NCBI GenBank assembly: GCA_905478415.1
Contig: CAJQIG010000002.1
Span: 120,834-184,833 of the forward strand
Reading direction: 5' to 3'
Origin: an uncultured Patescibacteria group bacterium
GTDB taxonomy: Bacteria > Patescibacteriota > Microgenomatia > UBA1400 > PJMF01
Length of the DNA stretch: 64,000 nucleotides
Positions 1,976-31,773 of the stretch are shown here, piece after piece (the first letter of the stretch is position 1; each line of letters begins with the position of its first letter). The position numbers and the translations under genes were made by a program. The notes under the pieces were generated by a model, which searched no databases, had not been told where the DNA came from, and saw only the letters and a program-made list of their open reading frames with translations.

Positions 1976-4900
1976 TTAGTTTACAATCCACCAGTTGAGT
2001 TGTACTTCTGTATCCAAGGCTTCATCAAAGCCAACTATGAACTCCCCCTGTTTGTCTTCGCTTGGGTTTTCTTCTTGCTGTGACTTGACGTAGAGGACTT
2101 TGTTTTGTGTGCTGCCCACTGGAGTTACGTAGATAAGTGAGTCTTTATTGACTTTACTCGACTTGATTTTAATTTCTTTGGTACCACTTGGAATGGCGGC
2201 TTTACCAGAGGTTTTTTGACTCTCGAGTATTGGTCGGTTGTCACTGTCTAGGGTATCCAAGTTGGCTGTGCCCAGGTTTTCACTACCGACACTGAGTCCG
2301 CCTGCGAACTCAGCTTTTCCTTGAGCAGAGATGGTGGCTACAGGGGCACCGAGTTCGTCGATAATTTCAAAGCGTGATTTTCTCACTTCGCCATCTTCGT
2401 CAGAGATACCAGCCACCTGGACTTGGAGTGGGTTGCCAAAGTTGGTTGGTTTGAGGAGGTCTGCAAAGAGGGTGCCTTTAACAGTGGCGTCGTTTTCGAT
2501 AGTGAAGCTGCCGTTGATGGTGGCAGTACCGTTTTCTTCAAGGATAAGGAGGCCAGCCATGAGGGAGAGAGACCCTTGACCAGATGGTTGAATTTCAAAG
2601 ACTGAAGTACTATCGGTAGCAGTGTAGGCGATGTAGTTTTCACCGATTTCGAGGGTGTTGGCAATGGTGACTGATTGGCCGGCATGAATGTCTTTTTCGA
2701 CGAAGAGACTTTGGCCGATACCCATATTATCAGCTACGTAGGCACCGCCGTTGACTTTGAAATAGTTATTGATGAAGAGAGCGTCACCTTCAAGCGTGAC
2801 ATCAGTGGCACTCAGTGATAGATCAGCCAGTGTGAGGTTGAGGTCTGCAGAACTAGAGGCAGTGAAGCCGGCTGTTTCTACCGTTTGAACCACGTCGGCG
2901 ACTGATTTAATACTATCGGTGGTGGTCAACATTGCCAGGAGAGATGCTTTTTCGGTAACGGTCAGCGTCTTTTCGTTGAGGCCATCAATATTATTTGCAT
3001 AGAGTGTTCCCGAGACAGTAGCTGTGACAAACTCTGCTGTTTTGGCTTTAGCATCCTCAAACTGGGCGATTCCAGCTTCAAGAGCAGCTATTCTGGCTGA
3101 GGTCGTATCGATAGCAGTGGCAGTTATTGTTCCCGAGACGGTTGCTTCTTCAACTAAGAGAGAACCGAGTGATGTTTTATTTGCTGTGAGAGTATCAGTC
3201 GATACAGATCCCGAAATTGTTGCCGAGTTGGCCACAATATTTTTTGCTGTAAGTGAACCTAGGAGCGTCGTGTCTCCGTTACTAGAAATTGTTGCGACTG
3301 TAGTGTTTGAACTATCTGTAACCAGGACCGAGCCACTTTGTGAGGCGATTTTGATGACCGTGTTATTGGCAATAGGAGAGACAAGCGGTGCTACATTAGG
3401 AGTGTTTTGGTTTGCAGTAATACTTTGAATATAACTAGCGAGTGTTTGCCCATTAATGGTTATGGATTCAACAGATAGAGTCTTGATAGAAGCAGTATTC
3501 TGAACAACAAGATCCTTAGTGGTGGTGAGTCCTGCCTGGATATTTGCTACAAATGCTTTGGCGAGACTGGTGACAGAAGTGACGGTTTGTCCTGAGTTTT
3601 TGACTCTGTATCCTGTTGATGAGTCCCCAGTGAGCACTACCTGGCCATTTTCTGCAAGAGTAATAGTGGGGTCGTACCAGGCTATATTTACAAACACGAT
3701 TGCTTTTCCTACGTAGGTGCCATTGGGGAGTCTAAAACAAGGAGAGGATAAGTTGCTTCCTGGATCATCTGGCCAGGTAATGGCTTCAAGTGAGGGTACG
3801 TTGGTACAGGTTAGTTTTGATGGATCAAATGATTCTAAGACTTTACCAACAATTTGACCTGGCTGAGTTGATTTCATACCAATACCAGGTAAGACAGAAG
3901 TTGTAATGGCATCACCTCGGTTTAAAACTCCGTTTAGTGTGCTTACTTTGATTGAGGTTCTTCCATTTAGAGCCAGTGGTCTGATTTGTCCAGGGAAGTC
4001 TTCTTCTTCTAGCCAAGCTCCAAGGAGTGAGCCTGGAGTGGTTGAAATGACACCGATGACGGTATTGTCATAGGGTTTTGATGTTTTCTTAACCCAAGCA
4101 GTTTTAATGGATTCACTGTCATCAGTTGGATACTCTAGGTTTGCATATTGTTCGAATCCGGTGGGGACCATGTCTGGATTATTTGCTTCACTGTGGCCAC
4201 TCTTTACAACCTCATTTTCTTTAGTTGGGTCAACCACAACGATATCTGCGGCCTGGGTAGTAATATCACTTGTTAATATGTTTTCAGCATAGTCGTGAGA
4301 ACCTCTGGTATACGTTGTACCGTTACCCTTAACAGTAAACTCATCATGAGCATGGCCTGCATAACCATTTAGTACTTTGAGTATATCAGTTCCCCCAGTG
4401 GCACCACCCATAAGTGTAACGTAGCCAGTGTCTGCCGTATTCCATGTTTGTGAAGCAATTAGTAACCTGTTTGTTGCATCTTGTTGTATGTAAAAGTCTG
4501 AAAGGTTGTTAAAATATAACCCATCTGTTTTAATAGTCACATCTGCGTTTGTAGTTGAGTCTCCACTCAGGTTAAGTAAACTACCTAATCCAGACCAGAT
4601 TCTCGAGTATTGACTACCTGTACTACTTTCAAACACAATATCTGGAGGGTCATCTACATCAGTTGTATTTGCTCGATATTTAATTTCACCATCATGTTGG
4701 AAGATGACATTGGTACCGTAGCCACCTTGGGTGTGGAGTACAGCTGCTGGATTGGTAGTTCCAATACCTACATTACTTGCAAAGTAGCCACCTCCCGTAG
4801 TCCCATTAAGGAAGATCCTTGAAACTCCTCCTGCAGAAACATACATTCCCCAACCAGCTCCACCAGGAGTTGCTGAAACAAATGATGCATTTGAGTGTGT

Positions 4901-15718: not shown

Positions 15719-17767
15719 TTAAAATGACTGTTGTGTGAGTTCTTCGAATGAGGTTAGGGAAGTATCAAATACAAGCGGTTTTTCACCGATTGTAACCTCT
15801 TCAAAGCCCATGTTCCCTGATTCTCGATACCAAATATATTGGCTCTTAGTAATAGTTATGTAGTACAGACCAGGATCACAGTAGGCTCCATATTTGCCTT
15901 TTTTATTAGTTGTGACCAATGCTACCAACTCTGTCGTTTGGGGATCGCTTACTTTGATAACGACATTTTCGATAGGTACTCCATCACGAGTGGTAATGGT
16001 TCCACGGATGGTAGCTCGTTTGTTGCTAATGACATACTTTTTTGCAAAAACTATCAAGTAAAAGGCGATAACTGCATAGTTTAATCTAGTTGGGCTAATC
16101 AAGGTAAAAATCACTGAGAGAATAAACATGGGAATGAGCAAATTCTTCATTCTAAGGCGAGCTGCAGTCAACCTCAGCCAACTTTTGAGGTTCTTTTTTC
16201 TGACTTTTTCATCTTTGGGATCAATTGGAATCAAGAACAATTGATGCGTCTTATCGGTACTTACCCGAAACGTTTCTCCTTTGTAGAAATCATTTATACT
16301 CAAGTAATTCGGCTTTTCTTTGGTAGTTGGGAAGGTGTAATCCTGGTGGGTAACAGTAATCTTGTAGACGCCATGGGGGAGTTGAATACCCTGATAGATA
16401 CCATTCTCATCAGTCACCACTGTTTCGAAGATAGTTTCGCTTGAGTCAACGCTCTCAATTGTAAGGAGGGCGAAGGGAACTGGCTCGTTTGTGTCACTAT
16501 TAAACACAATTCCTTGTGGTTCCTTGGCTGGAAGGAGTCCAATTGCTTGTAGAAACCTGAAGAAAAGTTCAAGACTCAGCTGTCCGCCGTAGCTGAAAAG
16601 TAGTGAGAGCAAACTGAGAGTAGGCAACAGCGCGGTTACAATTAATGCTCCAATTGGTGAGATAGCTCTGATCGATTGTGTGATAGCTTCGATAATTTGT
16701 GGGGGAATACTGTTCGTAACCTCCTCTGGAGTAGCCTCGAGGGTTTCTTGGATGATCTCATGGATGATTTCTCGCGGTGGCGTAATTGAAATAATGATAA
16801 CAGGGCTGGGACTCGGTGAGGGAGTTGGTACTACTGAAGGACTTGGCTCTGGGGTAAATCCAGGAGTAGGGCTTGGAGATGGAGTGGGCGTTGGGCTAGG
16901 TGTCGGGGTAGGTGTCGGTGCTGGTGGAGGAATGATAATGATGATAGGGTCAATGACAATTTTTAGATCACTAATGACAGAAATATTTCCTGAAGAGTCA
17001 GAAATAACAAAGTCGAGGGTAATGACTACGTTCCGGGGAAGAATACCAACTTGAAAGTCCCACGAACCATCAGAACCTATGGTAAAAGTATGAGTCTGGG
17101 TTGGATCATCGGGAATAGTGATGGTGAGTTGTACCGATGCATTACTTTCGCCAGTACCCACCAGGAGTGGTTCATTGTTTGCTAGGTGAATTGGATCAGA
17201 TGGAACGGTGGCGGCATCACCAGTGTTGATGTCAACTGTTTCATCGCCAATAGTTGTGATCTCGAAGTAGGGAGCAGTAGTATCAATAGTAAAATCCCAG
17301 ACAACTGACTGAGAAAAGTTTCCAGCCTCATCATAGGCATATATCTGCCAAGTGTGGTCGCCGTCGGAGAAGCCAGATTTGGGGGTAAGGAAGAAGTGTG
17401 AAAGGCCACTATCATAGAGTAGTGTGTATTGACTGGTTGTAGTTGCCCCAGTAGGAATGGTATCGAAGAGAAGGACTCCATCACGCCAAAATTGATAGTG
17501 AGAGACATCGACATTATCTGTGGATGCCTGCCACTCAAATGTAGGAGTGGGGGTGGTGAGGGTTATTTCATCCTCAGGAGAAATAAGAATTGGTGTACTT
17601 GGAGGGATGATGTCTGGGACAGTTGCGGTGACCAATTGTGGTCTATTTTTAGGATTTGTGGTTAAGTCTTCACCAGGAAGCAGTCCGCTTTCTTGAGCTC
17701 CTGCACCCAGAGGTGAGAATACAAGTAAGAGGGAAACCAAAAATGCTAGAAGTCGTTTGTAGCGCAC
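15719..17767 (-). CDS. Secreted/membrane surface protein with an Ig/FN3-like module, a Pro/Thr-rich linker, TM helices and C-terminal carboxypeptidase-regulatory-like beta-sandwich domains
   Basis: Signal peptide MRYKRLLAFLVSLLLVFSPLGAGAQE. PT linker PPPAPTPTPTPSPTPTPSPSPTP. Hydrophobic helices in the middle. CarboxypepD_reg-like segments (GTITTRDGVPIENVVIKVSD...KKGKYG; NGIYQGIQLPHGVYKITVTHQDY). Confidence 0.55.
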   Translation of the reverse strand: MRYKRLLAFLVSLLLVFSPLGAGAQESGLLPGEDLTTNPKNRPQLVTATVPDIIPPSTPILISPEDEITLTTPTPTFEWQASTDNVDVSHYQFWRDGVLLFDTIPTGATTTSQYTLLYDSGLSHFFLTPKSGFSDGDHTWQIYAYDEAGNFSQSVVWDFTIDTTAPYFEITTIGDETVDINTGDAATVPSDPIHLANNEPLLVGTGESNASVQLTITIPDDPTQTHTFTIGSDGSWDFQVGILPRNVVITLDFVISDSSGNISVISDLKIVIDPIIIIIPPPAPTPTPTPSPTPTPSPSPTPGFTPEPSPSVVPTPSPSPSPVIIISITPPREIIHEIIQETLEATPEEVTNSIPPQIIEAITQSIRAISPIGALIVTALLPTLSLLSLLFSYGGQLSLELFFRFLQAIGLLPAKEPQGIVFNSDTNEPVPFALLTIESVDSSETIFETVVTDENGIYQGIQLPHGVYKITVTHQDYTFPTTKEKPNYLSINDFYKGETFRVSTDKTHQLFLIPIDPKDEKVRKKNLKSWLRLTAARLRMKNLLIPMFILSVIFTLISPTRLNYAVIAFYLIVFAKKYVISNKRATIRGTITTRDGVPIENVVIKVSDPQTTELVALVTTNKKGKYGAYCDPGLYYITITKSQYIWYRESGNMGFEEVTIGEKPLVFDTSLTSFEELTQQSF

Positions 17768-17810
17768 ATGTACTTATATTTCTGATTTTGTATTACACTT
17801 GGCAACAACA

Positions 17811-18878
17811 TTAGTCTTCGTGTTGTTCCAGTTTTTTACTTTGTAAACTCTGGATCTGTTCCTCTAAATTCTTGATCTGTTCCTCTTTGTTTCCATTTTT
17901 GTGTACTATGTGTCTTCGAATTGAAATTATCATTGCAACTAAGACTAACAATATGATAATTGCGGTCAGAACTAACTTGACTGGAAAGAGCCAAAATGAA
18001 GTGTTAGAAATTGCAATATTTCCTTGTTCACCATAGCTCATTATCAGCTTAGCTCTATAAAAGCCATGTCCCCAGACTCGATCCCATTTCCCAGAGAAAG
18101 CTCGGTTGTAGAGTGGGAAGATATTCTTACTTTCGATTTCAATAGTGTCAATTTTTTGGTTGAAGATGTTATAAATTTCAACAGACATTTGAGGGGTGAT
18201 ATGAATATCTGACTGGTTATCAACAAAGAATGAGAAATCTACTGGTCCAATTTCGGTTAGCTGAGGAAAGCTGAAGTCTCTGATAAAGGCTTCTTCGTTA
18301 ATAAGCCCATCAACAATTACATAGAAGAGAGAACCGACCTTTTGACTGATTGCAGAGGCAGATTGACCATCATCGAGAGCAATTCCTTGTGATGGTTCGT
18401 GTGTGACCATAGCATAGTGACCTCCTGGCAAAGCATTTTCTGGAACTTCGATCAGTACAGAAGTAGCAGCTGTTGTTTGTGGTTGGATAGTTTGCTGAGA
18501 GGGGGCAATCACAAGCCAGTTGGCTAAACTCCAGCGAGTGGGGGTTTCTTCCATCAAAGGAATTGGTGTTTCCCCATCAAGATCAAGCATAAAGTCTTGA
18601 GCGAGTGTTCTAATAGTGATGGGTTTTGTAGAGTTGTTTCTGATTCTTAGTTGCACTTGCTCTTTAGCTCCAGGAGCAAGCTTGATGATTTCCTGATCTC
18701 CAACTCTAGGGGGAATAGCTGTCAAGGTAATAGTGTCATCACTTTGAGAAAAATCTTGGGCATGGATGGTGTGAGTAAAGACGGTTGCTCCGAGAACAAG
18801 GGTAGCTACAGTGAAAGCTAAAGTCTTAAGTGAGAGCTGTGGGCGGGCAGTGTTCATGTAGTTCCTTATGGTCCTCAA
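17811..18878 (-). CDS. Surface protein with signal peptide and a C-terminal TM anchor plus coiled-coil tail (paralog of 20398-21381). DUF916-like architecture.
   Basis: N-terminal signal sequence, a ~280-aa extracellular domain, C-terminal TM LVLTAIIILLVLVAMIISI and tail NKEEQIKNLEEQIQSLQSK. Shares motifs with 20398-21381 (..VSVTP.. / IKPGSK..TITIEN..). Confidence 0.5.
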   Translation of the reverse strand: MRTIRNYMNTARPQLSLKTLAFTVATLVLGATVFTHTIHAQDFSQSDDTITLTAIPPRVGDQEIIKLAPGAKEQVQLRIRNNSTKPITIRTLAQDFMLDLDGETPIPLMEETPTRWSLANWLVIAPSQQTIQPQTTAATSVLIEVPENALPGGHYAMVTHEPSQGIALDDGQSASAISQKVGSLFYVIVDGLINEEAFIRDFSFPQLTEIGPVDFSFFVDNQSDIHITPQMSVEIYNIFNQKIDTIEIESKNIFPLYNRAFSGKWDRVWGHGFYRAKLIMSYGEQGNIAISNTSFWLFPVKLVLTAIIILLVLVAMIISIRRHIVHKNGNKEEQIKNLEEQIQSLQSKKLEQHED

Positions 18879-20323
18879 AATGTTGCGGTTGCTGTATAGG
18901 TAACGTAGTTTTCATAGTCACCTGCTGATTGTGTAGACGAGATGACGGCTCTGTAGCAGACATCAATGTTTTCATTATCAGCCACCGTGCTACTGCTAAA
19001 TATTTGTTGCGGTGATTGGCTATCTTCGGCGTCTGCGAACTGTCTAGCACAGTAGGTTCCGGTACAGCTACCAGTTGCAGTTGTGTACTCGAATGGCACA
19101 GTATTGGCGTCGGCATTCTCGATAGAGAATCCAAAGCCTTTTACAGAAGTTGTGTTCCATTCATCAATCAGTGCGTGGGTCATGGTGGAGTTATCACCAA
19201 CTGAATCAGGAATACATGATCCAGATGTGTTGTCGCCGGTACAAGTGGCTCCACTGAGTCCGAGCTGATCACTTTCGACAGCGGTAACGGCATAGCCATT
19301 AGTAGCGTTTGTTGAGACAGTAAGCGTCTGGGCAGCATCAGTAAATGATGAAATAGCAAGTTCGGCCAATGGTACGGCTGCAGCAGTGGTGGTGACATCG
19401 GTGGTGACGCCACATTTAGTTGCACCGCTGGAAACACCTGCAATCGAGAAGGTAATTTGAGGTGCGACGCTGGCAGTAATTCGAACTGCTTCAATAACTC
19501 CAATAGCAACAGTGGTACTGTCTACAGTACTAAAGTCACTGCCAATATGTTGGACAACAATCTTGTATGAATCAGCAGTTCCCGTGGTGTGGCCAGTATC
19601 AGGTGCGGGGTTGATAATAGAGTTGATGGTAATAGCATCGTTGGTAGTACCATCAAAAGCAGTTCCAATGGCTCCAGTACCTGAATAGAGACACTCGTAG
19701 GAGTGGTAGTCGGTGCTGCCAATAGTAACCGCGCTAGCAGTAGCTGTTCCAGTTACAAAGTCATAGCCAGTGAGATCTGTCGGACAAGTCACGGTTGGGG
19801 CACTGGTCCCAAAGTCAAAAGCACCCTGATCTGGTAAACCATCGTTAGCATCTGCATCTGCATCAAGAGTTGGAACCAGAATTCTAAAACCACCATTCGC
19901 AACGGCATTGGCAGTGTTAAACCGAACAGTGTGTGTGGCAGATTGGGTAGAAATAACATCATCACTAGTATCAGCATCACCAGTACCCAGAACAGGAGTG
20001 ATATTGACCAGGGAATTGCTGACTATATTGGTAATGGTATAGAGACTCATGGTTCCAGCAGTTCCGACTGAAAGAACATCATCAGTTTGGAGTTGATCTG
20101 TTGTTGTTGAGGGGTAACCAGATGTGTTGATAATAACCTGAGATGAAGATTCTGTGTTCCCAGCACCAAGTACACCTCTAAATGAGGGGCGAGAGTTAGA
20201 AACAGTGACTGAAACGTTGGTCAAACTGGCAGATTCACTTCGATGTGCAAATCCTCCAGCAGCAACAATAGCAGTTAAAAATACTGATAAAACAATGGAT
20301 TTTTTTAGTTTATTTCTCTTCAT
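18875..20323 (-). CDS. Secreted Thr/Ser/Gly-rich, beta-rich surface protein (paralog of 21389-22144)
   Basis: Signal peptide MKRNKLKKSIVLSVFLTAIVAAGGFA. Shares blocks with 21389-22144 (SVKGFGFSIENADANTVPF vs TVSGFGFNIQGDDVATDFV). C-terminal alternating strand SAGDYENYVTYTATATF vs AAGTYETAVVYVAVPGY. Confidence 0.5.
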   Translation of the reverse strand: MKRNKLKKSIVLSVFLTAIVAAGGFAHRSESASLTNVSVTVSNSRPSFRGVLGAGNTESSSQVIINTSGYPSTTTDQLQTDDVLSVGTAGTMSLYTITNIVSNSLVNITPVLGTGDADTSDDVISTQSATHTVRFNTANAVANGGFRILVPTLDADADANDGLPDQGAFDFGTSAPTVTCPTDLTGYDFVTGTATASAVTIGSTDYHSYECLYSGTGAIGTAFDGTTNDAITINSIINPAPDTGHTTGTADSYKIVVQHIGSDFSTVDSTTVAIGVIEAVRITASVAPQITFSIAGVSSGATKCGVTTDVTTTAAAVPLAELAISSFTDAAQTLTVSTNATNGYAVTAVESDQLGLSGATCTGDNTSGSCIPDSVGDNSTMTHALIDEWNTTSVKGFGFSIENADANTVPFEYTTATGSCTGTYCARQFADAEDSQSPQQIFSSSTVADNENIDVCYRAVISSTQSAGDYENYVTYTATATF

Positions 20324-20397
20324 TTTTGCGCAATACTAAACTCTCAAAAGAGTATTTTAGTGCTTAGATTTAAGTTTAGCTGGTATTTCCCCTGACT

Positions 20398-21381
20398 TCA
20401 AGAGTCAGAGTGTTGTTTTTTTCTTTTTACTATGAAAGTAATTCCTGCAGCACTCAATAAGAGAGTTATGAGTGTTGGAAGTATGGGGAACGCAAAAAAA
20501 GTAAATGTGTCGTAGGCAATGATGTCTTGGCTTTCGCTGGTATAGGGTTGTGTTACTGTCACTTCTACGGTGTAGAGTCCGAGTAAAAAGGAAGGGTCAA
20601 ACGCAAAGGGAACTGCCTCTGGCTCGATATCTTTTTGAAAGTCGGTTCTCATAGCTCTGAGTTCTCGAGCACTAAAGCCAAGGATAGTGTCAGGGAAAAT
20701 GTTGAATGCAGCAACCTGAGAGTCAAACATATTCTTGACGACTACAGTTCCAGCTGCATTTGTAGCAGCAAAGTTATTATTTTTAATAGAGGGTTTGATA
20801 GTAATTTTTTTAAAGCTATCTACGAACTTTGGAACAGCGATACTATTGATATTTATTAATTGAGAGATTTGTTCATCTTTCGAAATAAGCACAATCATAT
20901 TGCTTCCGATGGCCCCAACAAGCTGTGAAGTTGAGCCTGGATTAGTGCTTTGCGTGGGGATTGATTCAAACATAACTGTCAGCGGGTATTCCTTCTCTTC
21001 GGCATCTTCAGGAACGGTGAACAAAAGTGCCAGCTGAGCCCGTTTTCCACCAGGAATGGTGATTTCTTGTTGAGAAATAGTTTCTATGTCGAGGTAGGGG
21101 AATGACGACTCTCCTACTAGAATGGGTCGTCCTGTAGTGCCATCGGCTGTGAAATCAAAGATGAGTGGTCTGAGGGTACTATTTAAAGCTCCTTGGTTTT
21201 CGATAGTGATGGTGTGACGAACTTTCGATCCTGGTTTGATTCGTATATACGAAGTGTCTGGGGTGACCGAGACAGTAAAGGCCTGTGTTTGTGCTGCAAC
21301 GGGAGTAGGGGTAATCACTCGACACAACAAAGTAATGGTGAGGATACTGTAGGAAAGCAGCTGGGTTATTTTTGTGTTCAT
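20398..21381 (-). CDS. Surface protein with signal peptide and C-terminal TM anchor (paralog of 17811-18878)
   Basis: Signal peptide, extracellular domain, C-terminal TM LPTLITLLLSAAGITFIV then KRKKQHSDS. Confidence 0.5.
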   Translation of the reverse strand: MNTKITQLLSYSILTITLLCRVITPTPVAAQTQAFTVSVTPDTSYIRIKPGSKVRHTITIENQGALNSTLRPLIFDFTADGTTGRPILVGESSFPYLDIETISQQEITIPGGKRAQLALLFTVPEDAEEKEYPLTVMFESIPTQSTNPGSTSQLVGAIGSNMIVLISKDEQISQLININSIAVPKFVDSFKKITIKPSIKNNNFAATNAAGTVVVKNMFDSQVAAFNIFPDTILGFSARELRAMRTDFQKDIEPEAVPFAFDPSFLLGLYTVEVTVTQPYTSESQDIIAYDTFTFFAFPILPTLITLLLSAAGITFIVKRKKQHSDS

Positions 21382-21388
21382 AATGCTA

Positions 21389-22144
21389 TTAATACCCTGG
21401 TACGGCTACGTACACAACCGCTGTCTCATAAGTTCCAGCAGCAGTGTTACCGCTTTTAGCGGCCTGATAGGTGACGGTTGATTGCCGTTTATAGCCAACA
21501 TTATTTGACGACATGATTGCTTGCATAGGAGCTGCGGCTTCATCATCAGCAAAAGGGCGAAAGTAGGTATTGTTAACAAAATCTGTTGCGACATCATCGC
21601 CTTGGATATTAAAGCCGAAGCCACTGACTGTGGGGTCAGTCCAGATACCAGCCGAAGCAGTTGTGCAAGTTCCAGCATCGCAAGTAGTGTCTGTAATTTC
21701 GTCTGTATCTCCTTGAAGTCTGAGGGGGTGAAGTTCGTACGCATACACCGAGTAGCCGCCAGCTCCACGGGTAGTTATTTCGAGGGTATGTGTATCTGTA
21801 CCAAAGGCCCCACTGACTAACTCTCCCAAGTTCATGTTGACGTCACTGATAATAAAACTAAAGTCTTTGATCTGATAGATATACTGAAATCCAGCTCCAA
21901 CAAAGTAGCCAGAAGTACCGTATTCGCCAAAGGCTCCGGCTGCCGTTTGTCCAACAGTGTCCGTAACATTGTAGTTGGCCGAACTTTTTTCTCCAGAAGT
22001 CACATTGAAATTGCCGAATTGAATAACATACGAATCTGACTCTAATCGCTCAGCTTTGACGCGGTCAACTTGCCAAAAGAAGAGAGAAAAGACGAAGAAT
22101 CCCAGGAGGCTTAGAATGAAAAAAGATTTCGTAGTGTTGTGCAT
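21389..22144 (-). CDS. Secreted beta-rich surface protein (paralog of 18875-20323)
   Basis: Signal/anchor FFILSLLGFFVFSLFFW. Paralogous blocks as listed for 18875-20323. Confidence 0.5.
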   Translation of the reverse strand: MHNTTKSFFILSLLGFFVFSLFFWQVDRVKAERLESDSYVIQFGNFNVTSGEKSSANYNVTDTVGQTAAGAFGEYGTSGYFVGAGFQYIYQIKDFSFIISDVNMNLGELVSGAFGTDTHTLEITTRGAGGYSVYAYELHPLRLQGDTDEITDTTCDAGTCTTASAGIWTDPTVSGFGFNIQGDDVATDFVNNTYFRPFADDEAAAPMQAIMSSNNVGYKRQSTVTYQAAKSGNTAAGTYETAVVYVAVPGY

Positions 22145-22836
22145 TACTCATTTACTTTTTTTAACAGTTTTTCGCTTTCGGAAACGATCAAAGTTATTTG
22201 TGAGTGAAGGGTTTTCTCAAGCTCTGTTTGGGGAGTGCCTAGGGAGCTGAGTGTTGCAGTTTTGGGGAGTAAAAACTGTTGGATATAGTCTTCGAGAGTA
22301 GTGATTTCAGCCTGTGATGCTGCAACTAGCGCTTCTTCTTCCTCAATAATCTGTTTTTCTAGCAGCGCAGTGGTGTGTCGATCTTTTGCGTAGAGCATCA
22401 CGCCGGTGATCAGCGGAATATTCACTAGGATAATCATTTCTTGGACAGTGAAAGTGGTAATCAAAAGTAGCTGAAGAGCAAAGGTACAACCAGCAATAAG
22501 GAGTGCCGAAGTTTTTTCGAGACTAAACACGATTAAGAACAGGTACAGATAGGTGAGTGGGTAGGCCCATGAATGGGTGTTCCCGGTGGCAGAAATGAGG
22601 AGCATAAAGAGCAAGGTAATAGGAATGAGTTCAGAGTTAGTATGATTAGGAAAAGGACTTTGAAGGTTGTTCCGATTATGTTTAAACCTGAGAAATACAA
22701 ATAATAAAAAAGTCAGAGCCACCAGCTGCAGTGAGTAGATTTCTAGAAATGGAACCGACATCCAGATACCAATAATGGCAAAACTTAAGACCACGAATGG
22801 CAGGCGGGTATCAATGGACATACGTTCAGTATACAT
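22144..22836 (-). CDS. Integral membrane protein with a C-terminal cytoplasmic coiled-coil; function unknown
   Basis: Four to five hydrophobic helices, then an acidic/coiled-coil tail (EKQIIEEEEALVAASQAEITTLEDY). Confidence 0.45.
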   Translation of the reverse strand: MYTERMSIDTRLPFVVLSFAIIGIWMSVPFLEIYSLQLVALTFLLFVFLRFKHNRNNLQSPFPNHTNSELIPITLLFMLLISATGNTHSWAYPLTYLYLFLIVFSLEKTSALLIAGCTFALQLLLITTFTVQEMIILVNIPLITGVMLYAKDRHTTALLEKQIIEEEEALVAASQAEITTLEDYIQQFLLPKTATLSSLGTPQTELEKTLHSQITLIVSESEKLLKKVNE

Positions 22837-25498: not shown

Positions 25499-25792
25499 TT
25501 ATTCGACCCCGATATTGAGATCAAAGACAAGAAAGACTTCGGCCGCATTTTCAAAAATCTTGAGAACTCCTTTTTGGAAGATGAATTCCTGAGTGGTTTC
25601 ATTGGCTAAATGGACAACAAGTTTATTTTCATTCAATGCTCCAGTAATAACAGAAACAAAGTTAGTGTGGCCTGAGAGTACACTGAAAGGGCCAGCTTCA
25701 TTGACCGCTTCGAGAGCTTTAATTTCCTCGGCAAAAAGGAGTCCTGTTTCATCAAAAATTTTTAAATGAAATGTTTCTGGAATGTTTGGCAT
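25499..25792 (-). CDS. atpC: F-type ATP synthase epsilon subunit (divergent)
   Basis: Position immediately after atpD. N-terminal beta-sandwich pattern FHLKIFDETGLLFAEEIKALEAVNEAGPFSVLSGHTNFVSVITGALNENKL resembles the epsilon fold. Confidence 0.55.
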   Translation of the reverse strand: MPNIPETFHLKIFDETGLLFAEEIKALEAVNEAGPFSVLSGHTNFVSVITGALNENKLVVHLANETTQEFIFQKGVLKIFENAAEVFLVFDLNIGVE

Positions 25793-25806
25793 ACTGATTT
25801 AGAGGG

Positions 25807-27483
25807 CTATGTGTTTGTTTCTTCCATCTTGGTTGGAGTGTAGTTGACAACTCGTTTTTCGAGGTGCTCAGTCACCTTTGTTTGTGAGCTTTTGTTTGCT
25901 TCGGCCATAAGAGTGGCGGTGTATTTATCTTTTATAGAGGCGGTATCTTCTGTTGATTTTTTCTTAGCGGCAATTTTTTCTTGAATGAGTGTTTGAGCTT
26001 CGGTGTCAGAAAGTGTCATGGGAATTGGCTCAGATTGTGTTTGGGTTGTTTGGTTGGTTGGTAGTACGGGACCCGACGACTTAAGGGTGACAGTTGGAGT
26101 ATTTTTTTTCCAAGCATCATCTATTTTTTCGATGTAGAGGAAGAGATCTGGGTCTGCATCATCAAAGGCACCAGAAAGAATTTTTTCGATGTCGATGAGT
26201 GTTGTGTTGGGGGTGGCAAAAACCCCTGGTTTTCCGGTTTGTGGCTCGGCCACAGACAAGCTTTGGGTCATGTAGTTCTGCAAAAGAATAGAACGTTTGT
26301 ATTTTTTTTGATCTTCGGCAGAAAGTTCTGAAAGTCCTACAAGTGATACAATTCGTTCAATTTCTTTGGCAGATTCAAGGACTTTTTTGGCTTCTAAGTA
26401 GAGTCCAAAATGTTTTTCTCCTACAGTTTCTGGAGTTAGAGCTGATGAATTAGACTCGAGTAAATCAACGGCAGGGAGCCGTCCAGACTGATAGACATCT
26501 CGAGAAAGGACGATATAACCGTCGAGATAGTCAAAGGTTGATCTAACACTGTAATCCAGGAGGTCGTCAGAAGGGAGATAGATGGCTTCGATAGTTGTAA
26601 TGTGGGCTGACTTATTAGAGACGAGTCTTTCGTGAAGTGTGCCGATCTCGGAAGGGAGTGTGGGCTGATAGCCTTCTTCGGAAGGAATGGCTTTCATAAG
26701 TGTGGCTAGTTCGTATCCTGCTTGACTAAATCGGTACATGTTGTCAATGAAGAAGAGCACGTCTTTGCCTTCATCACGGAAGTGCTCGGCTATTGTAGCC
26801 GATGCAGAGGCGGTTCTAAAACGAACTGCTGGATTTTCTCCCATTTGCCCCAGGACCATGGTCGTTTTTTTGAGCACATCGGAAGCCTCGAGGGTTTCGA
26901 GGAGTTCATGGGCTTCTCTAGAACGTTCTCCAACAGCGCTAAAGACAGAGACAGTTTCAGAGTCGCTTTTGTTGTTGTTAGTAACAACATTATGGATAAG
27001 TTCGGTAAGCAAGATTGTTTTTCCGAGGCCAGCCCCACCAACCAATCCAGTCTTACTACCTTTAAGTATGGGAGTAAAGAAATCAATGGCTCGAATACCA
27101 GTCGTGATCACTTCAGAAGGGATGTAGGTATCTTCGATACTGGTTTTTTTGTGAGAGTGAATTGGTTTGCGTGTCGTTGCTAATGGTGCTTTGCCATCAT
27201 GCGGAGTCCCAAAAATATCAAAAGCTCTGCCCAAGACCGCGTCTCCGACTGGAATAGAGAGTGGTTCTCCAGTGCTAATCACCTCGGTACCTCTAGAGAG
27301 CCTGATTTCATCACTCAAGATGAAGCAGAAGTAGTGTTGCTCGCTGGCTGAGGCAATAATTTCAAGCTTTACTGCTGGGTTGTCAGCCAGAGTTAAAATA
27401 TCGAAGATACGTGGTTGTTCATCGAGAAATTCGACCTCAGCCACGGTGCTTCTGATAGATTTGATACTGCCTCTGAGTGCCAT
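25807..27483 (-). CDS. atpD: F-type ATP synthase beta subunit with an unusual ~90-aa Thr/Gln/Lys-rich C-terminal extension
   Basis: GGAGLGKTILLTELIHN P-loop, VSVFSAVGERSREAHEL, QPTLPSEIGTLHERL...IEAIYLPSDDLLDYSVRSTFDYLDGYIVLSR. 558 aa versus the usual ~470. Confidence 0.9.
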   Translation of the reverse strand: MALRGSIKSIRSTVAEVEFLDEQPRIFDILTLADNPAVKLEIIASASEQHYFCFILSDEIRLSRGTEVISTGEPLSIPVGDAVLGRAFDIFGTPHDGKAPLATTRKPIHSHKKTSIEDTYIPSEVITTGIRAIDFFTPILKGSKTGLVGGAGLGKTILLTELIHNVVTNNNKSDSETVSVFSAVGERSREAHELLETLEASDVLKKTTMVLGQMGENPAVRFRTASASATIAEHFRDEGKDVLFFIDNMYRFSQAGYELATLMKAIPSEEGYQPTLPSEIGTLHERLVSNKSAHITTIEAIYLPSDDLLDYSVRSTFDYLDGYIVLSRDVYQSGRLPAVDLLESNSSALTPETVGEKHFGLYLEAKKVLESAKEIERIVSLVGLSELSAEDQKKYKRSILLQNYMTQSLSVAEPQTGKPGVFATPNTTLIDIEKILSGAFDDADPDLFLYIEKIDDAWKKNTPTVTLKSSGPVLPTNQTTQTQSEPIPMTLSDTEAQTLIQEKIAAKKKSTEDTASIKDKYTATLMAEANKSSQTKVTEHLEKRVVNYTPTKMEETNT

Positions 27484-27541
27484 GTTATTGTTGCTTACTT
27501 TTTATTTTTTTATGTCTGTACTGGTTATTCAGTATAGAGTA

Positions 27542-28411
27542 CTACTGCCAAAAATGCATACCAGCCAAGCGATTTCTCTGTTTTCTACTATCTTTTTTAC
27601 GTAGGATTTTCACTGTTTGTTGGCTAACTTTTTTTCGTTCTTCCTCAATATTTTGTTGAGTGTATTGCAGCGTTGTAATTCGAGCTCCCAGAGTAGCTAG
27701 CTGGGCTTCACGCATTTTTTGTTGAAGGAGAGAAGCTAAAATTTGGATTTCAAAAAAGTGGAGGATTTTCTTTTTGTCTGGTTCAAAAAAAAAGTGGCGG
27801 TTCTGTCGCTCGGCTTCTAGTAGTTTATCACCAAGTGGGATGTCTCCAGAGATGGTACTCGATTGAGGTTCCTGGTGCATGATAGTGACAAAATAGGGGT
27901 AAAAGACTTCAACCTGTTCAAACTGTAGGATGTGTTCAAAGAAATCACTATTTTCGGATAAGTTAATGTTTTTCTCTTTTATGTCGAAGTAGGCGAATTG
28001 CATTCCTTCTGGAAAGTACTCATGAAAAAGACGCTTGGCAGTGGCACCAGTAATGACAATCTCAAATTCATTTTCAGAACTCTTCTTAGCAAACTCTCTA
28101 AACGATCTGCGAATTACGTCTGTCGAGAACTTGGTTTCAAATGCAATAAACACTGCCACACGCTTCCCATTTTTTTCAAGTGTCGAGAAAGATAGACTGG
28201 AAGAGTTGCTCTGTTTCTCAAAGAGTTTTTTGATTGATTGTTTAACATCAATAAAGGTCTCGATCAGGCCTTCAGAAAAAGCTCGACTATTAATGGTGGC
28301 ATCTCTATTTTTTTGCATCTGGTAGATGGTTAGTTTTTGATATGCAGAAAAGAAATCATTAATAGTAATGAGGGAATCTTGTTGCAGCTGAAGGTCTTTT
28401 AAATTTGACAT
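27542..28411 (-). CDS. atpG: F-type ATP synthase gamma subunit (divergent)
   Basis: Located between atpA and atpD. N-terminus MSNLKDLQLQ.. and C-terminal helix (EAQLATLGARITTLQ) are gamma-like. Confidence 0.6.
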   Translation of the reverse strand: MSNLKDLQLQQDSLITINDFFSAYQKLTIYQMQKNRDATINSRAFSEGLIETFIDVKQSIKKLFEKQSNSSSLSFSTLEKNGKRVAVFIAFETKFSTDVIRRSFREFAKKSSENEFEIVITGATAKRLFHEYFPEGMQFAYFDIKEKNINLSENSDFFEHILQFEQVEVFYPYFVTIMHQEPQSSTISGDIPLGDKLLEAERQNRHFFFEPDKKKILHFFEIQILASLLQQKMREAQLATLGARITTLQYTQQNIEEERKKVSQQTVKILRKKDSRKQRNRLAGMHFWQ

Positions 28412-29880
28412 AGTTGCCGTAACTGTGTTTGATTAGATTTTATTTTTGAAAGAAAAGCAGTAAACGAAGGTGCAGTGACATACTCATCGAGTTGTGTAGC
28501 AATAGTGGATGTTTGGTACTGTTTTGAGAGTTGGAATATTGAACTTTTTAGAGCATTTTCGTGAGTCTGGGCATACCATCCCTGCCAGATTAATCCTAAA
28601 ATGATGAGTCGGACAGTAGTGGCAATTCCTTGCTGCTGAGAGTCACTCAGGAAGTTAGTAATCAGGTCTCCTTTTTTAAGGACTTCTTGGCTTCGAGTGC
28701 TAATTTCACTTCCCAAGTGAGTCAGGTTCTTGGTTTTGCGGTAGGAAGTTAAGAAACTGGTTAGCTCTTGGTTGATGTCACGTTGCAAAGGACTTTGCGT
28801 TTGTTTTCCCACACGAGTGACTGAAAGTTTTGTATCAATTGCTGGTCGAAAGCCTTGCGCAAAGAGCTTTGTATCGAAAAGCAGGTGCCCATCAGTAATA
28901 CTGATTAGGTTTGAAGTGATAAAGTCAGTCAGGTCACTGTTGATGGTTCGAACCACGGGGAGGCAGGTGAGCGAAACTTCACCAGCAGTATTTTTATCGT
29001 GAGAGAACATACCGGCTCTCTCGAGTAATTGAGCGTGTCGGTAAAAAATGTCGCCGGGATACGAGTCTCTTCCCGGGAATCGTTTTGCAAGCAATGAAAG
29101 TTCTCGATAAAACTCTGCATGGGTTGTGAGGTCATCTAGAATGAGTAAGACATCTTTTCCTTGGGATACAAGGTGTTCTGCAACAGTCATGGCGGCAACA
29201 GGAGTAATGGTGATAGTACTGACGGGGTCTTGGGTAGTTGAGGCAACTAGAATGATATTCTCGAGCACACCCGATTTTTTAAAGAAGTCATACGTTTTTT
29301 TTATATCAGCAACTTTTTTACCTACGAGGCCGTACACAACAGTGGTACCACTCTGAGCTTGAGTGAGCGCAACTCCTCGAGCAAAGTCACTCTTCCCTGC
29401 TTTTCTGTCTCCCACGAGGAGTTCTCGTTGCCCATGCCCAATGGGCAGTAGGATGTCAGTCAGACTAAAACCAGTTTCTAGCTGTTTTGTAATACGTTTT
29501 CTTTGAGAGATTCTAGGGGGGACTTTAAAGATGCTGCTATATTCTTCTGACGAACTTGATGAAGCGGCTGTTCCAAGGACAACCTCCCCAAGAGGTGAAA
29601 AAATAGCGCCTGTTTTGAGTCGGGATACAGGAAATGAAAGGACATGCCCGGTGCGAGAGATCTTACTTTCGATAGCCACTGGCTTTGTTGAAAAAACCAT
29701 AATATCAATAGCTTCGTCAGTAAAAGACAACACCTGGCCGAGTGAGTTGTCTTCAAAGATGACTACTTCCCCAACGCTCACACTCTGAAAACCTCGAGCA
29801 CGTACCAGAGGATGATGCACCGCAATCACGACAGCATACTCACTAGTAACTACGGGGTATTGTGGTTGGGTTGTGCTCAT
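28399..29880 (-). CDS. atpA: F-type ATP synthase alpha subunit
   Basis: GDRKAGKS P-loop variant, ILDDLTTHAEFYRELSLLAKRFPGRDSYPGDIFYRHAQLLERAG, SLTCLPVVRT...ISITDGHLLFDTKLFAQGFRPAIDTKLSVTRVG. Confidence 0.9.
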   Translation of the reverse strand: MSTTQPQYPVVTSEYAVVIAVHHPLVRARGFQSVSVGEVVIFEDNSLGQVLSFTDEAIDIMVFSTKPVAIESKISRTGHVLSFPVSRLKTGAIFSPLGEVVLGTAASSSSSEEYSSIFKVPPRISQRKRITKQLETGFSLTDILLPIGHGQRELLVGDRKAGKSDFARGVALTQAQSGTTVVYGLVGKKVADIKKTYDFFKKSGVLENIILVASTTQDPVSTITITPVAAMTVAEHLVSQGKDVLLILDDLTTHAEFYRELSLLAKRFPGRDSYPGDIFYRHAQLLERAGMFSHDKNTAGEVSLTCLPVVRTINSDLTDFITSNLISITDGHLLFDTKLFAQGFRPAIDTKLSVTRVGKQTQSPLQRDINQELTSFLTSYRKTKNLTHLGSEISTRSQEVLKKGDLITNFLSDSQQQGIATTVRLIILGLIWQGWYAQTHENALKSSIFQLSKQYQTSTIATQLDEYVTAPSFTAFLSKIKSNQTQLRQLCQI

Positions 29881-30326
29881 GAGGCAGCTCCCTTACTTGT
29901 TTCAAAAGCGGAGCGGTGATGGCGTTCTCCGGATACTTCCCAGGTGACTTCACCTAGTGTTGTATTGTTGGTGGTGACTTTCAGAATAAATGGATTTTTG
30001 TACTGTTTTTTGAACAGGGTTTGAAAATCTTGCAACTGCTTTTGAGTGGGAGAGTAGGGAAGAGTGAGGTGTAGTATCTCTAGTGAAGCTAAGCTGGCAT
30101 CGAGTGTAGTGAGTTGTTTTTCCTGTTCGGTAACGCTTTTAGTGGCTGCTATACTTGAATAAAGGAGTGAAAACTTGAGGGGAATGACTGCTTGTAGTGA
30201 TCTGTCAAAATCAGTTCCTGACTTTGTGTAGAGATTTTTTTTGATTTCGGCAATCACGCTTCGGAGTTCAGCCAGATCGTGGGTAGAAAGAATGGTTTCA
30301 AGTAGTTGTGATTGCAGTGGTGACAT
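29877..30326 (-). CDS. atpH: Putative F-type ATP synthase delta (OSCP) subunit
   Basis: Position between atpF and atpA; size of 149 aa. No strong motif. Confidence 0.4.
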   Translation of the reverse strand: MSPLQSQLLETILSTHDLAELRSVIAEIKKNLYTKSGTDFDRSLQAVIPLKFSLLYSSIAATKSVTEQEKQLTTLDASLASLEILHLTLPYSPTQKQLQDFQTLFKKQYKNPFILKVTTNNTTLGEVTWEVSGERHHRSAFETSKGAAS

Positions 30327-30955
30327 TATGAGGGATCTTTACGCGCTTCAGTTTGTTCTTTTGGCAGTGTTGCCAGGTGTTCAGATATGAGTGTTAGGCA
30401 AAGTTCATGTACTTGGTCTGAAGATAATTCTTGGTGTAGGTAGCGCTTTGTCACTTGATGCACTTCCTGGGCAGCTTGCTGAGCAATGACTTGTTTTTGT
30501 TCTGCTGTGTACTGAGCAATTTCTTCTGTAGCCTTTTTTGTATGTGTTAAAAGCAGTTGATGCATTTCAGACTTTGTATGGGTGATTGCTGCTGTTAGTT
30601 CCTCAGTTAAGTTGGATACTTGTACCTTGGCGGAAGTTTGTAGTTCTTTGAGTGTTTCCTGTGTTTGGTTCAAAATAGTGTGTTCAATTTTTTCTTGGAC
30701 CTTTTGAGCCAGTGATGCCACTTCTTTAGAGGCCGTAACTGAGTTTTGAGATACTCTAGAGAGAGAAGTGCGAGCTTCTTCGGCAGCTGAAGTGACAATT
30801 TTTTCAAGTTTTTCTTGCGTTTTCTTGAGTTCTTTTTGGTATTCTTTTTCGAACCGCTTGGTTTTATTTCTTTCAGAAAACAGTAACCCAGCAATGATGA
30901 CTTCAAGAATAAAAATTGACCAGAGTGAAAGAAGCGTGATATCGGGTGATTGCAT
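30326..30955 (-). CDS. atpF: Putative F-type ATP synthase b subunit
   Basis: N-terminal TM helix (LLSLWSIFILEVIIAGLLF) followed by a long charged coiled-coil; operon position. Confidence 0.5.
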   Translation of the reverse strand: MQSPDITLLSLWSIFILEVIIAGLLFSERNKTKRFEKEYQKELKKTQEKLEKIVTSAAEEARTSLSRVSQNSVTASKEVASLAQKVQEKIEHTILNQTQETLKELQTSAKVQVSNLTEELTAAITHTKSEMHQLLLTHTKKATEEIAQYTAEQKQVIAQQAAQEVHQVTKRYLHQELSSDQVHELCLTLISEHLATLPKEQTEARKDPS

Positions 30956-30957
30956 AA

Positions 30958-31773
30958 TTAAAAAGTGACCATCAGGTACGCTCCTACTACTCCAGCAATA
31001 ATAATGATAATGCTGACTACTATATTAACAAAAATACTGGTGATAATGCTATTCTTTGCGAGTGGATTACGACCAATGGCTTCAATTCCTTTTTGAGAAG
31101 TGCGACCCAACAGGATAAAACTGGCGAAAATTGAAAGCAGTAAAACTGCGCCCGCCACCACATACTTGAAAACTTTTGTTGGCTCTTCAAAAGCAGCAAT
31201 GGCACTGAGACTGACGATGTTTCTGAGTCGGTCCGAGATGGTTTCCGAATCTGGTGTGTCGCCAGCAAAGGTAAACTCCTTGTTGAGGCGGATTGAAATT
31301 AAAGCAGTGTCATCTGAAGTAGTGCCTGCAAAACTTTCTTCAGCTACACCGAGAGTAAAGCCAGATTTGACCGCCTTCATACCAACTCCTGGGCTCGAAG
31401 AGCTAGTGATTTTATCACCAGGTTGTATAGCTCCATTTTCTCCCGAGACCAAGACATTAGCTGTTCCATCTGCAATTACTGGTGAAGTGTCGCTCGTATT
31501 ACCAAAGGTAAACTCAATGCTGGGATTGAGGTCAACTATGCCAAACATGGTTCGGTCATAGGGACCTTGGCTTTCAGTGTAGGTTGTGTCTCCCAAAGAA
31601 ACAATCATGCCATCAAAGATTTCAATTGATGGTTCTACTTTGAGTTGATAGGCAATTCCCAGAGGTTCTTCAACTTGTTTTTGCGCTTGTATCTGTGGAG
31701 TGACCAACTGCGTTGCCCCAAAACCAAGTGTTAGGAGGAGAAGAGTTTGTAGGGTATTTTTTTTACTCAACAT
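30958..31773 (-). CDS. Fusion protein: N-terminal signal peptide plus a ~190-aa extracytoplasmic domain, with a C-terminal ATP synthase c-subunit-like helical hairpin that lacks the ion-binding carboxylate
   Basis: C-terminus LLLSIFASFILLGRTSQKGIEAIGRNPLAKNSIITSIFVNIVVSIIIIIAGVVGAYLM aligns to c-subunit (..[57 protein letters not shown]), with the conserved Asp/Glu position occupied by Ser. The N-terminal part is hydrophilic with signal peptide MLSKKNTLQTLLLLTLGFGATQL. Confidence 0.5.
   Translation of the reverse strand: MLSKKNTLQTLLLLTLGFGATQLVTPQIQAQKQVEEPLGIAYQLKVEPSIEIFDGMIVSLGDTTYTESQGPYDRTMFGIVDLNPSIEFTFGNTSDTSPVIADGTANVLVSGENGAIQPGDKITSSSSPGVGMKAVKSGFTLGVAEESFAGTTSDDTALISIRLNKEFTFAGDTPDSETISDRLRNIVSLSAIAAFEEPTKVFKYVVAGAVLLLSIFASFILLGRTSQKGIEAIGRNPLAKNSIITSIFVNIVVSIIIIIAGVVGAYLMVTF

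Follow-up and report, generated by a model that had tools for sequence, protein, structure and literature searches.

An F-type ATPase operon of Microgenomatia and Saccharimonadia with a c-subunit-like fusion protein that lacks the ion-binding carboxylate

Rotary ATPases translocate ions by means of a carboxylate on the c-ring that works against an arginine and the half-channels of the a subunit, and an enzyme without both can neither be driven by an ion gradient nor build one. In canonical enzymes the R-Q/N-P loop of the c subunit contacts gamma and epsilon, and in bacterial enzymes the C-terminal helical domain of epsilon restrains hydrolysis. In mycoplasmas, the F1-like X0 ATPase (Type 3 in PMC12994834; first described in PMC3369863) is encoded by a seven-gene cluster that includes a 12-transmembrane (TM) protein, a small cytoplasmic protein and a protein with a signal peptide and two TM helices, lacks b and delta, and is needed, via ATP hydrolysis, for the MIB-MIP antibody-cleavage system. 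Here we describe an ATP synthase-type operon from a stretch of 64,000 nucleotides, referred to below as the window, of an uncultured Patescibacteria bacterium (GenBank contig CAJQIG010000002.1). Its first gene encodes a protein that we call X, in which a signal peptide and an extracellular domain precede a helical hairpin of the c-subunit type, and our comparative analyses make it very likely that the operon specifies a complex of the F type with a c-derived subunit incapable of ion binding.

Several earlier reports bear on this system in the Candidate Phyla Radiation (CPR). In a WWE3 genome that was essentially complete, Kantor et al. (2013) detected the atypical operon alone; they reported no recognisable a or c subunit and no canonical Fo, and likened a 'putative c subunit' to a TM protein of the ATPase operons of OP11 and WWE3; this is evidently the same system, remarked on without characterisation. 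The Saccharibacterium Southlakia epibionticum has one ATP synthase gene set only, a canonical atpI-B-E-F-H-A-G-x-D-C operon with an epsilon of 141 amino acids (aa), all genes of which are dispensable. A recent preprint (bioRxiv 10.64898/2026.03.03.709456) solved the Pam pili of Ca. Mycosynbacter amalyticus (Saccharimonadia), whose pilins occur mainly in Saccharimonadia and Microgenomatia, and described a locus with PamA/B-type pilins, membrane-anchored PamC/D chaperones and adjoining 'ATP synthase' genes; the co-localisation of ATP-synthase and tail-fibre-like genes with pam operons was read by its authors as a link to ATP production. Beyond the remark of 2013 and this co-localisation note of 2026, the searchable literature yielded no earlier treatment of the fusion, of the carboxylate loss or of the absent a subunit.

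The c-subunit-like hairpin of X

First, the C-terminal hairpin of X is a homologue of the F-type c subunit, with its helical hairpin and an R-Q/N-P-type loop. The window sequence alone stays below the PF00137 cut-off and gives a weak NCBIfam c-subunit match (E 0.017), and weak PF00137 matches are found in 4 of 34 family members. When the X family profile is searched against the PDB, the best matches are c subunits (A. woodii c2, E 0.0034; Chloroflexus c, E 0.013), hhalign matches the hairpin profile to eight canonical c subunits with a probability of 83% (E 8.6e-6), and fold comparison also points to the F-type c subunit. The PF00137 match that the preliminary description had proposed as a check is thus absent for the single sequence and emerges at the level of profile and fold only.

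Second, the hairpin lacks the residue on which ion translocation depends. In the hhalign register, Asp61 of E. coli c falls on Ile255 of X, one residue past Ser254. Among 356 X-family proteins this position is held by L, I, V, A, M, G, F, T or S and in none by Asp or Glu (0/356), and neither helix of the hairpin contains an acidic residue in any of the 34 aligned members. The preliminary description was therefore right that helix 2 has lost its conserved carboxylate and mistaken only in the residue, which it had given as serine. An acidic residue elsewhere in a helix occurs in nine of the 356 proteins, in most of them at a polar position that precedes the canonical site by 5-6 residues. This conserved position in helix 2 (Asn250 of X, 31024-31026) is Asn or His in Microgenomatia and Gln in Saccharimonadia, with Glu in 7/356 proteins. 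One could imagine that ions are still carried through such a non-carboxylate site (Asn, His or Gln, at times Glu) against an unrecognised stator, and the conservation of a polar residue at P+12/13 of TM2, including the rare Glu, speaks for this. However, the residue lies near the cytoplasmic end of TM2 rather than mid-membrane and is replaced by V, T or I in many members, no conserved candidate stator stands beside the operon, and we know of no rotary ATPase that translocates ions without a carboxylate. We therefore consider this explanation extremely unlikely.

The loop between the two long helices, ...GIEAIGRNPLAK..., behaves differently. Its G-R-N-P is invariant in our alignments A1 and A3, and the loop region is the best-conserved segment of X (0.66, compared with 0.33-0.45 in other regions, the TM helices and ectodomain included). 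An invariant loop in combination with a carboxylate position that is never acidic is the pattern to be expected of selection that acts on F1 docking but not on ion binding; to judge by the alignments, the X family keeps the parts that would dock F1 and has lost those that carry ions.

An AlphaFold2 model of X (34 homologues as input; predicted local distance difference test score, pLDDT, 88) comprises an N-terminal helix (residues 5-23), the beta domain (~36-170), a linker helix (177-196) and two long helices (198-235 and 237-270). A hydrophobic N-terminus is found in 34/34 aligned members and the loop is net-positive by its sequence; because of this signal peptide and net-positive loop, we place the ectodomain outside the cell and the loop in the cytoplasm, a topology equal to that of the F-type c subunit. 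A first homologue search returned 94 homologues of 245-305 aa that are alignable from signal peptide to C-terminus. Scanning with a HMMER profile of the hairpin yielded at least 1,361 representative clusters at E<=1e-3 (a lower bound, counted as clusters of 50% identity) and 595 at E<=1e-10, and nearly all of the best 150 are 240-300 aa long with the hairpin at the extreme C-terminus. Saccharimonadales have a second subfamily, which comprises more than 500 proteins. X ranges over Microgenomatia and Saccharimonadia, in agreement with the range reported for Pam pilins in the preprint.

The preliminary description had described X as a fusion of a secreted domain with a c-like hairpin and had left open that the start codon was mis-called and that a stand-alone c subunit is encoded here. 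The fusion holds, with signal peptide, beta ectodomain and c-type hairpin kept together in hundreds of homologues, and since this full-length form is conserved we take the annotated start to be right. The few short hairpin matches are fragments cut off by contig ends, and a search upstream of the hairpin found no promoter-like signal above chance; a mis-called start is accordingly rejected.

The operon in related loci

We gathered ~50 loci from Pace-, Woese-, Davies- and Gottesmanbacteria, other Microgenomates and Saccharimonadales, viewed to 10 kb on either side of the match, together with the 64 kb of this genome; where loci need to be told apart we give our own handles (L008 and so on). In the window, X takes the place of atpE, immediately upstream of b, and neighbouring operon genes overlap by up to 13 nt or are separated by up to 58 nt. 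Upstream lie a 313-bp intergenic region and the divergent gene for a 1,547-aa protein, which is the giant gene mentioned in the preliminary description; downstream lies leuS, in convergent orientation. The open reading frame (ORF) layout and the family profiles for b and delta bear out the order X-atpF-atpH-atpA-atpG-atpD-atpC given there, and the comparison with related CPR operons that it had proposed shows the same seven-gene order in ~45 loci, down to ~25% identity of X; in a jackhmmer search with the window proteins, nearly all loci of sufficient length have it.

No gene for an a subunit (PF00119) and no free c gene (PF00137) was found within 10 kb in these ~45 loci or beside the window operon, so that the earlier statement that atpB and a stand-alone atpE are missing from the locus stands and extends to its relatives. 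When E. coli AtpB (and AtpE) was searched with phmmer against the 3,582 ORFs of the loci, AtpB had no match. Clustering of proteins with four or more TM helices across loci, as candidates for a surrogate stator, gave only ComEC and lineage-specific proteins, and when all neighbours were clustered by BLAST, the shared genes were housekeeping ones only (leuS, argS, comEA/EC). An a subunit hidden in the gaps that some operons have was rejected as well, inserts being phosphoglycerate mutase or unrelated soluble proteins. The former is a 1.8-kb gene for a 2,3-bisphosphoglycerate-independent enzyme that sits between X and the b-like gene in Woesebacteria-type operons (L013, L016, L017, L018, L021).

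These data bear on two explanations in which a conventional enzyme is present after all. According to the first, the operon is split, with atpB and atpE elsewhere in the genome, the complex is an ordinary ion-translocating F1Fo, and X serves as an accessory or assembly factor that has a c-like anchor. Split atp operons are established in other bacteria, canonical a and c genes occur in some Patescibacteria, including some Saccharimonadia, and our view is restricted to the window and to 10 kb around the relatives' matches. Against this, b is preceded by X and not by atpE in every locus, a lone atpB-atpE pair away from b finds no support in ~45 loci, and a mere accessory protein would not need the invariant F1-docking loop of X. 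Further features described below, namely an epsilon without its C-terminal domain and scores of alpha and beta that stay under threshold, also indicate a separate lineage and not a housekeeping enzyme, and no recognisable a or c accompanies such an operon in the WWE3 genome (Kantor et al., 2013). We thus regard a split operon as unlikely.

The second explanation places two systems in each genome, in the manner of mycoplasmas: a canonical F1Fo elsewhere for ion homeostasis and, here, a paralogous machine without an a subunit. Mycoplasmas do have Type 1 alongside the F1-like types, and both operon types occur within the class Saccharimonadia. However, Southlakia has a single gene set and the WWE3 genome only the atypical one, two rotary ATPases would be costly in genomes of ~1 Mb, and none of the loci showed an additional alpha or beta. 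Extra 'beta' matches upstream of some operons (L023:39-1379, L026:8428-9897) proved to be RadA, with Zn-ribbon, KaiC/RecA-like ATPase and Lon_C domains. The coexistence of two enzymes therefore appears improbable to us.

Third, the soluble motor is divergent and, as far as its motifs tell, catalytically intact. The alpha subunit scores under the cut-offs of the NCBIfam alpha models, and beta reaches 397 bits on TIGR01039 (cut-off 463) and scores almost equally on the NCBIfam 'alternate F1F0' models and two mycoplasma F1-like families; because both subunits fall below the atpA/atpD equivalog cut-offs while beta is nearly as close to other F1-like families, we consider this a divergent F1. The Walker A motif of beta is present in 33/34 loci, the catalytic GERxRE with its catalytic Glu in 34/34, and the arginine finger of alpha, S[VI][ST]RVG, in 37/37. 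In epsilon, PF02823 covers residues 8-86 (E 3e-5, slightly under the gathering score) and the protein is 82-118 aa long in 29 of 30 loci. Since only the PF02823 part is found and epsilon is short in nearly every locus, we conclude that it is without the C-terminal helical inhibitory domain.

The b-like and delta-like genes have no match as single sequences. Profiles built from 37 orthologues gave OSCP/delta for the delta-like protein (A5, against the PDB, E 4.8e-9; PF00213 reached by 21/37 members) and F-type b subunits for the b-like protein (A6, 9itj_U, E 1.2e-6, amid coiled-coil noise), and the position of the b-like gene in the operon is conserved across loci. Both are thus real homologues of peripheral-stalk subunits. 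The C-terminal extension of beta, which the preliminary description had counted as part of the atypical picture, is on the other hand no trait of the system: it is a low-complexity tail rich in P, Q, T, S and K, found in about a third of lineages (~9/31). For one stretch of this tail (..PMxLSDxEA...KDKY...EHLE..YTPT), an alignment can be made with L008 and L009, the closest relatives, but with no others.

Table 1. Coordinates of the operon, of the parts of X and of related features; positions are those of the window unless a locus handle is given.
Feature	Position	Strand	Basis or description
ATP synthase-type operon X-b-delta-alpha-gamma-beta-epsilon	25499-31773	minus	seven closely packed ORFs
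X, operon gene 1, 271 aa	30958..31773	minus	signal peptide, beta ectodomain, linker helix, c-subunit-like hairpin
X signal peptide, residues 1-30	31684..31773	minus	KK n-region, hydrophobic core, IQA/QK; from sequence
X extracellular beta domain, residues ~36-170, 135 aa	31264..31668	minus	conserved GDxITSSxxxGVGMKA motif
X c-subunit-like helical hairpin, residues 199-271	30961..31179	minus	
X G-R-N-P cytoplasmic loop, residues 234-237	31063..31074	minus	counterpart of c-subunit R-Q/N-P loop
X Ile255, aligned with E. coli c Asp61 (ion-binding carboxylate)	31009..31011	minus	hhalign register
b-like peripheral-stalk subunit, 209 aa	30326..30955	minus	one N-terminal TM helix, then long coiled coil
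delta/OSCP-like subunit, 149 aa	29877..30326	minus	profile matches to OSCP/delta
F1 alpha subunit, 493 aa	28399..29880	minus	PF00006, E 1.9e-60
F1 gamma subunit, 289 aa	27542..28411	minus	PF00231, E 1.3e-13
F1 beta subunit, 558 aa	25807..27483	minus	PF00006, E 7.7e-62
beta C-terminal tail, 99 aa	~25810-26106	minus	low-complexity
epsilon subunit, 97 aa	25499..25792	minus	PF02823; beta-sandwich domain only
Divergent tail-fibre-like giant, 1,547 aa	32087..36730	plus	PF13884 Peptidase_S74, E 1e-12
X ectodomain copy in 3,889-aa giant, residues 3182-3277	3815..4102	minus	hmmsearch with X profile, E 1.6e-16
Pam-pilus-like gene set	15719..22144	minus	size, topology, C-terminal motif
Ig-rich hairpin-ended proteins	L046:3-6125; L050:6244-9120; L051:136-2484		

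A proposed role at the cell surface

Because H+ or Na+ gradients can be neither used nor built up without the carboxylate and the half-channels of an a subunit, we propose that the complex runs as an ATPase, and that the machine probably performs ATP-driven work at the cell surface rather than ATP synthesis or ion pumping. That the complex might be in non-canonical use had been one option of the preliminary description, and it is favoured by the lost carboxylate, the intact F1 and the conserved synteny. On balance we lean towards a divergent, ion-blind F-type motor that hydrolyses ATP and is coupled through X to an extracellular domain acting on surface structures. The soluble motor (alpha3beta3, gamma and epsilon) and the peripheral stalk (b and delta) would be retained, with X as the membrane partner. 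X may oligomerise as a c-ring would, its invariant cytoplasmic GRNP loop docking gamma and epsilon; F1 would hydrolyse ATP with no restraint from epsilon, and the hairpins could transmit torque or conformational strain to the ectodomains on the cell exterior. These in turn might act on surface structures, candidates being fibre-like giant proteins with the same ectodomain, the neighbouring Pam-type pili, or both.

The ectodomain has relatives of two sorts. PF23982 is matched by 12/34 members of the X family and PF22758 or PF11962 by a few, with Foldseek in agreement, and these families unite phage capsid decoration or cement proteins and the C-terminal autochaperone domain of phi29 gp12, which have their fold in common with X; in X, unlike in those phage proteins, the fold is tethered to a membrane hairpin and encoded within a cellular ATPase operon. 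A further copy is carried by the 3,889-aa giant of the window (Table 1), and X-type ectodomains are also found in giants adjoining the operon in L012, L016, L019, L020 and L024; these ectodomain-bearing giants are fibre-like and anchored N-terminally. The 3,889-aa protein (1976-13645, minus strand) has an N-terminal Phage_int_SAM-like domain and a single TM helix near residue 280, and its C-terminal ..NWWIVN motif is common to the giants of L012, L016 and L020. The divergent 1,547-aa protein has a Peptidase_S74 (endosialidase/tail-spike chaperone) domain at residues 1244-1295 and a Pro/Ser/Thr-rich tail, with relatives in ~20 loci.

The reverse architecture occurs in surface proteins rich in immunoglobulin-like (Ig) domains, 780 to more than 2,040 aa long, that end in an acid-less hairpin (Saccharibacteria L046; CPR3 L050 and L051). 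Their hairpins show G-x-EAIGRNP, a Gly-rich helix 1 and no acidic residue, and score 21.7-21.9 bits (CPR3) and 27.4 bits (L046) on PF00137, with only L046 over the 24-bit cut-off; GenBank calls the ends of these proteins a 78-aa 'hypothetical' or 'ATP synthase F0 subunit C, partial'. Downstream in L051, at a distance of 9 kb, come a b-like gene (11742-12296) and a gene for OSCP. Taken together with the X family, these proteins identify the acid-less c-like hairpin as a recurrent CPR device that ties extracellular domains of varied size to the membrane, and probably also to an F1.

That the same hairpin anchors unrelated large Ig-rich proteins also lends itself to another account, in which X is merely a surface protein with a c-like anchor, co-transcribed for unrelated reasons, and the F1-b-delta assembly is independent or decaying; TM1 without the ring-packing glycine motif is consistent with this. 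On the other hand, gene order is strictly kept over class-level divergence, the catalytic motifs are intact across loci, the loop is more strongly conserved than TM helices or ectodomain, and gamma and epsilon, whose only known partner is the c-ring, are retained. We accordingly find a mere anchor quite unlikely.

The neighbourhood of the operon also contains a Pam-pilus-like gene set, a likeness judged by size, topology and C-terminal motif. It includes secreted proteins of 251 and 482 aa with the pilin-like C-termini ..VAVPGY and ..TATATF. Two further members, 327 and 355 aa long, are PamC/D-like, with a TM helix at the C-terminus and weak matches to fn3_5 or WxLIP_PGBD. In Saccharimonadales loci the same kinds of genes directly follow epsilon, and both settings agree with the co-localisation described in the preprint. 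These findings suggest the CPR F1 operon as a candidate energy source for the newly described Pam pili. The set of the window also comprises a 682-aa Big_13/CarboxypepD_reg protein. Between leuS and the pam-like genes lies a 230-aa protein (22144-22836, minus strand) with ~4 TM helices and a C-terminal coiled coil, which has no Pfam match and is conserved only among close relatives of the window. GC skew is positive (~+0.06 to +0.25) in nearly all 2-kb bins of positions 1-64000, whichever strand genes occupy, and recalls the strand composition disparity of the Microgenomates order UBA1400 (PMC7143001).

Several points weigh against the coupled motor that we favour. For this organism, the absence of atpB and atpE holds at locus level only, with indirect support for a wider absence from the WWE3 genome of Kantor et al. 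(2013), and canonical atpIBEFHAGDC operons within Saccharimonadia, such as that of Southlakia, make a mycoplasma-like coexistence of both types possible. Ring formation by X and its contact with gamma and epsilon are deduced rather than taken from experiment or a multimer model, TM1 (helix 1) of X is without the GxGxGxG packing motif of c-rings, and a b2-delta stator such as the one retained here ordinarily relies on the a subunit for its footing in the membrane. The conserved polar residue (N, H or Q, rarely E) before the canonical site has no explanation in this scheme. Moreover, Pam-like genes are recognisable within 10 kb in eight loci, from two lineages only (the relatives of the window and Saccharimonadales, the latter as L048/L049), which renders the proposed surface partner uncertain.

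A more specific version, which we consider doubtful, is that F1 turns, or exerts torque on, a ring of ion-blind hairpins whose ectodomains are mechanically coupled to Pam pili or to the tail-fibre-like giant adhesins, the fibre being fused to the rotor hairpin itself in some CPR lineages. If true, this would be the first F-type rotary engine to deliver ATP-derived mechanical work outside a wall-bearing bacterium, and it would explain the retention of an 'ATP synthase' in CPR bacteria that have no respiratory chain. More generally, metabolic reconstructions routinely score such genes as complex V. In Microgenomatia and much of Saccharimonadia, represented by the at least 1,361 clusters counted above, this score is given to an operon without a recognisable ion path, and the generation of a proton-motive force or ATP synthesis inferred from these genes in those organisms is probably wrong. 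The reason for which ultrasmall CPR bacteria keep an ATP synthase thereby becomes a concrete experimental question.

Comparison with known systems

Compared with the bacterial F1Fo enzyme (atpIBEFHAGDC), the CPR operon has homologous alpha, beta, gamma, epsilon, delta and b subunits in the canonical order, and X in the atpE slot shares the hairpin fold, topology and R-N/Q-P cytoplasmic loop of c. It differs in that the operon has no a subunit or AtpI, that the c-like protein has neither the Asp/Glu nor the GxGxGxG motif and forms a fusion with a signal peptide and a 135-aa ectodomain, and that epsilon has no C-terminal domain and alpha and beta fall short of the NCBIfam equivalog thresholds. 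The operon belongs to the F-type ATPase superfamily by virtue of its F1 and stalk, and it departs from it in two Fo traits, the carboxylate and, at locus level, the a subunit. Hairpins of the c type that have lost the ion site, as X has, are known from A. woodii c1 and the duplicated proteolipids of V/A-type rings; there, other hairpins keep the carboxylate and the enzyme pumps, whereas here no copy in the locus keeps it.

Among divergent F-type lineages, the N-ATPases ('alternate F1F0', TIGR03305/03324) are comparable, the beta of the window scoring 370 bits. N-ATPases keep an a subunit and a carboxylate-bearing c subunit of the Na+ type and add AtpQ and AtpR. The CPR operon was rejected as a member, as it contains neither a, nor a c with a Na+/H+ site, nor AtpQ/AtpR, and stays far below the cut-offs of both models. 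The G1-ATPase of the Mycoplasma mobile gliding motor (Type 2 in PMC12994834) likewise repurposes an F1-like ATPase to move cell-surface proteins, and its NCBIfam models score the alpha and beta of the window nearly as high as atpA/atpD; it differs in forming cytoplasmic dimer chains, with no c-like membrane subunit and other accessory proteins.

By analogy, the system most resembles in function the mycoplasma F1-like X0 ATPase, in which ATP hydrolysis powers a surface system. Both combine F1-derived alpha, beta, gamma and epsilon with non-Fo membrane proteins and are genetically linked to a surface system, and one mycoplasma protein, in which an ectodomain stands between a signal peptide and a C-terminal pair of TM helices, matches the architecture of X, although an NCBIfam scan found no sequence similarity between X and the X0 membrane proteins. 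In the mycoplasma system alpha is without the delta-binding helix, b and delta are missing from the cluster and a genuine F1Fo stands alongside, whereas the CPR operon keeps b and delta and has no 12-TM protein; for these reasons, and with MSC_0618/0619 below cut-offs, it is not a member of that family. We believe that it may instead be a second independent case, after the mycoplasma F1-like ATPases, in which genome-reduced, cell-dependent bacteria have turned an F1 motor to the powering of surface machinery, here with the c-like hairpin preserved as a recognisable evolutionary intermediate.

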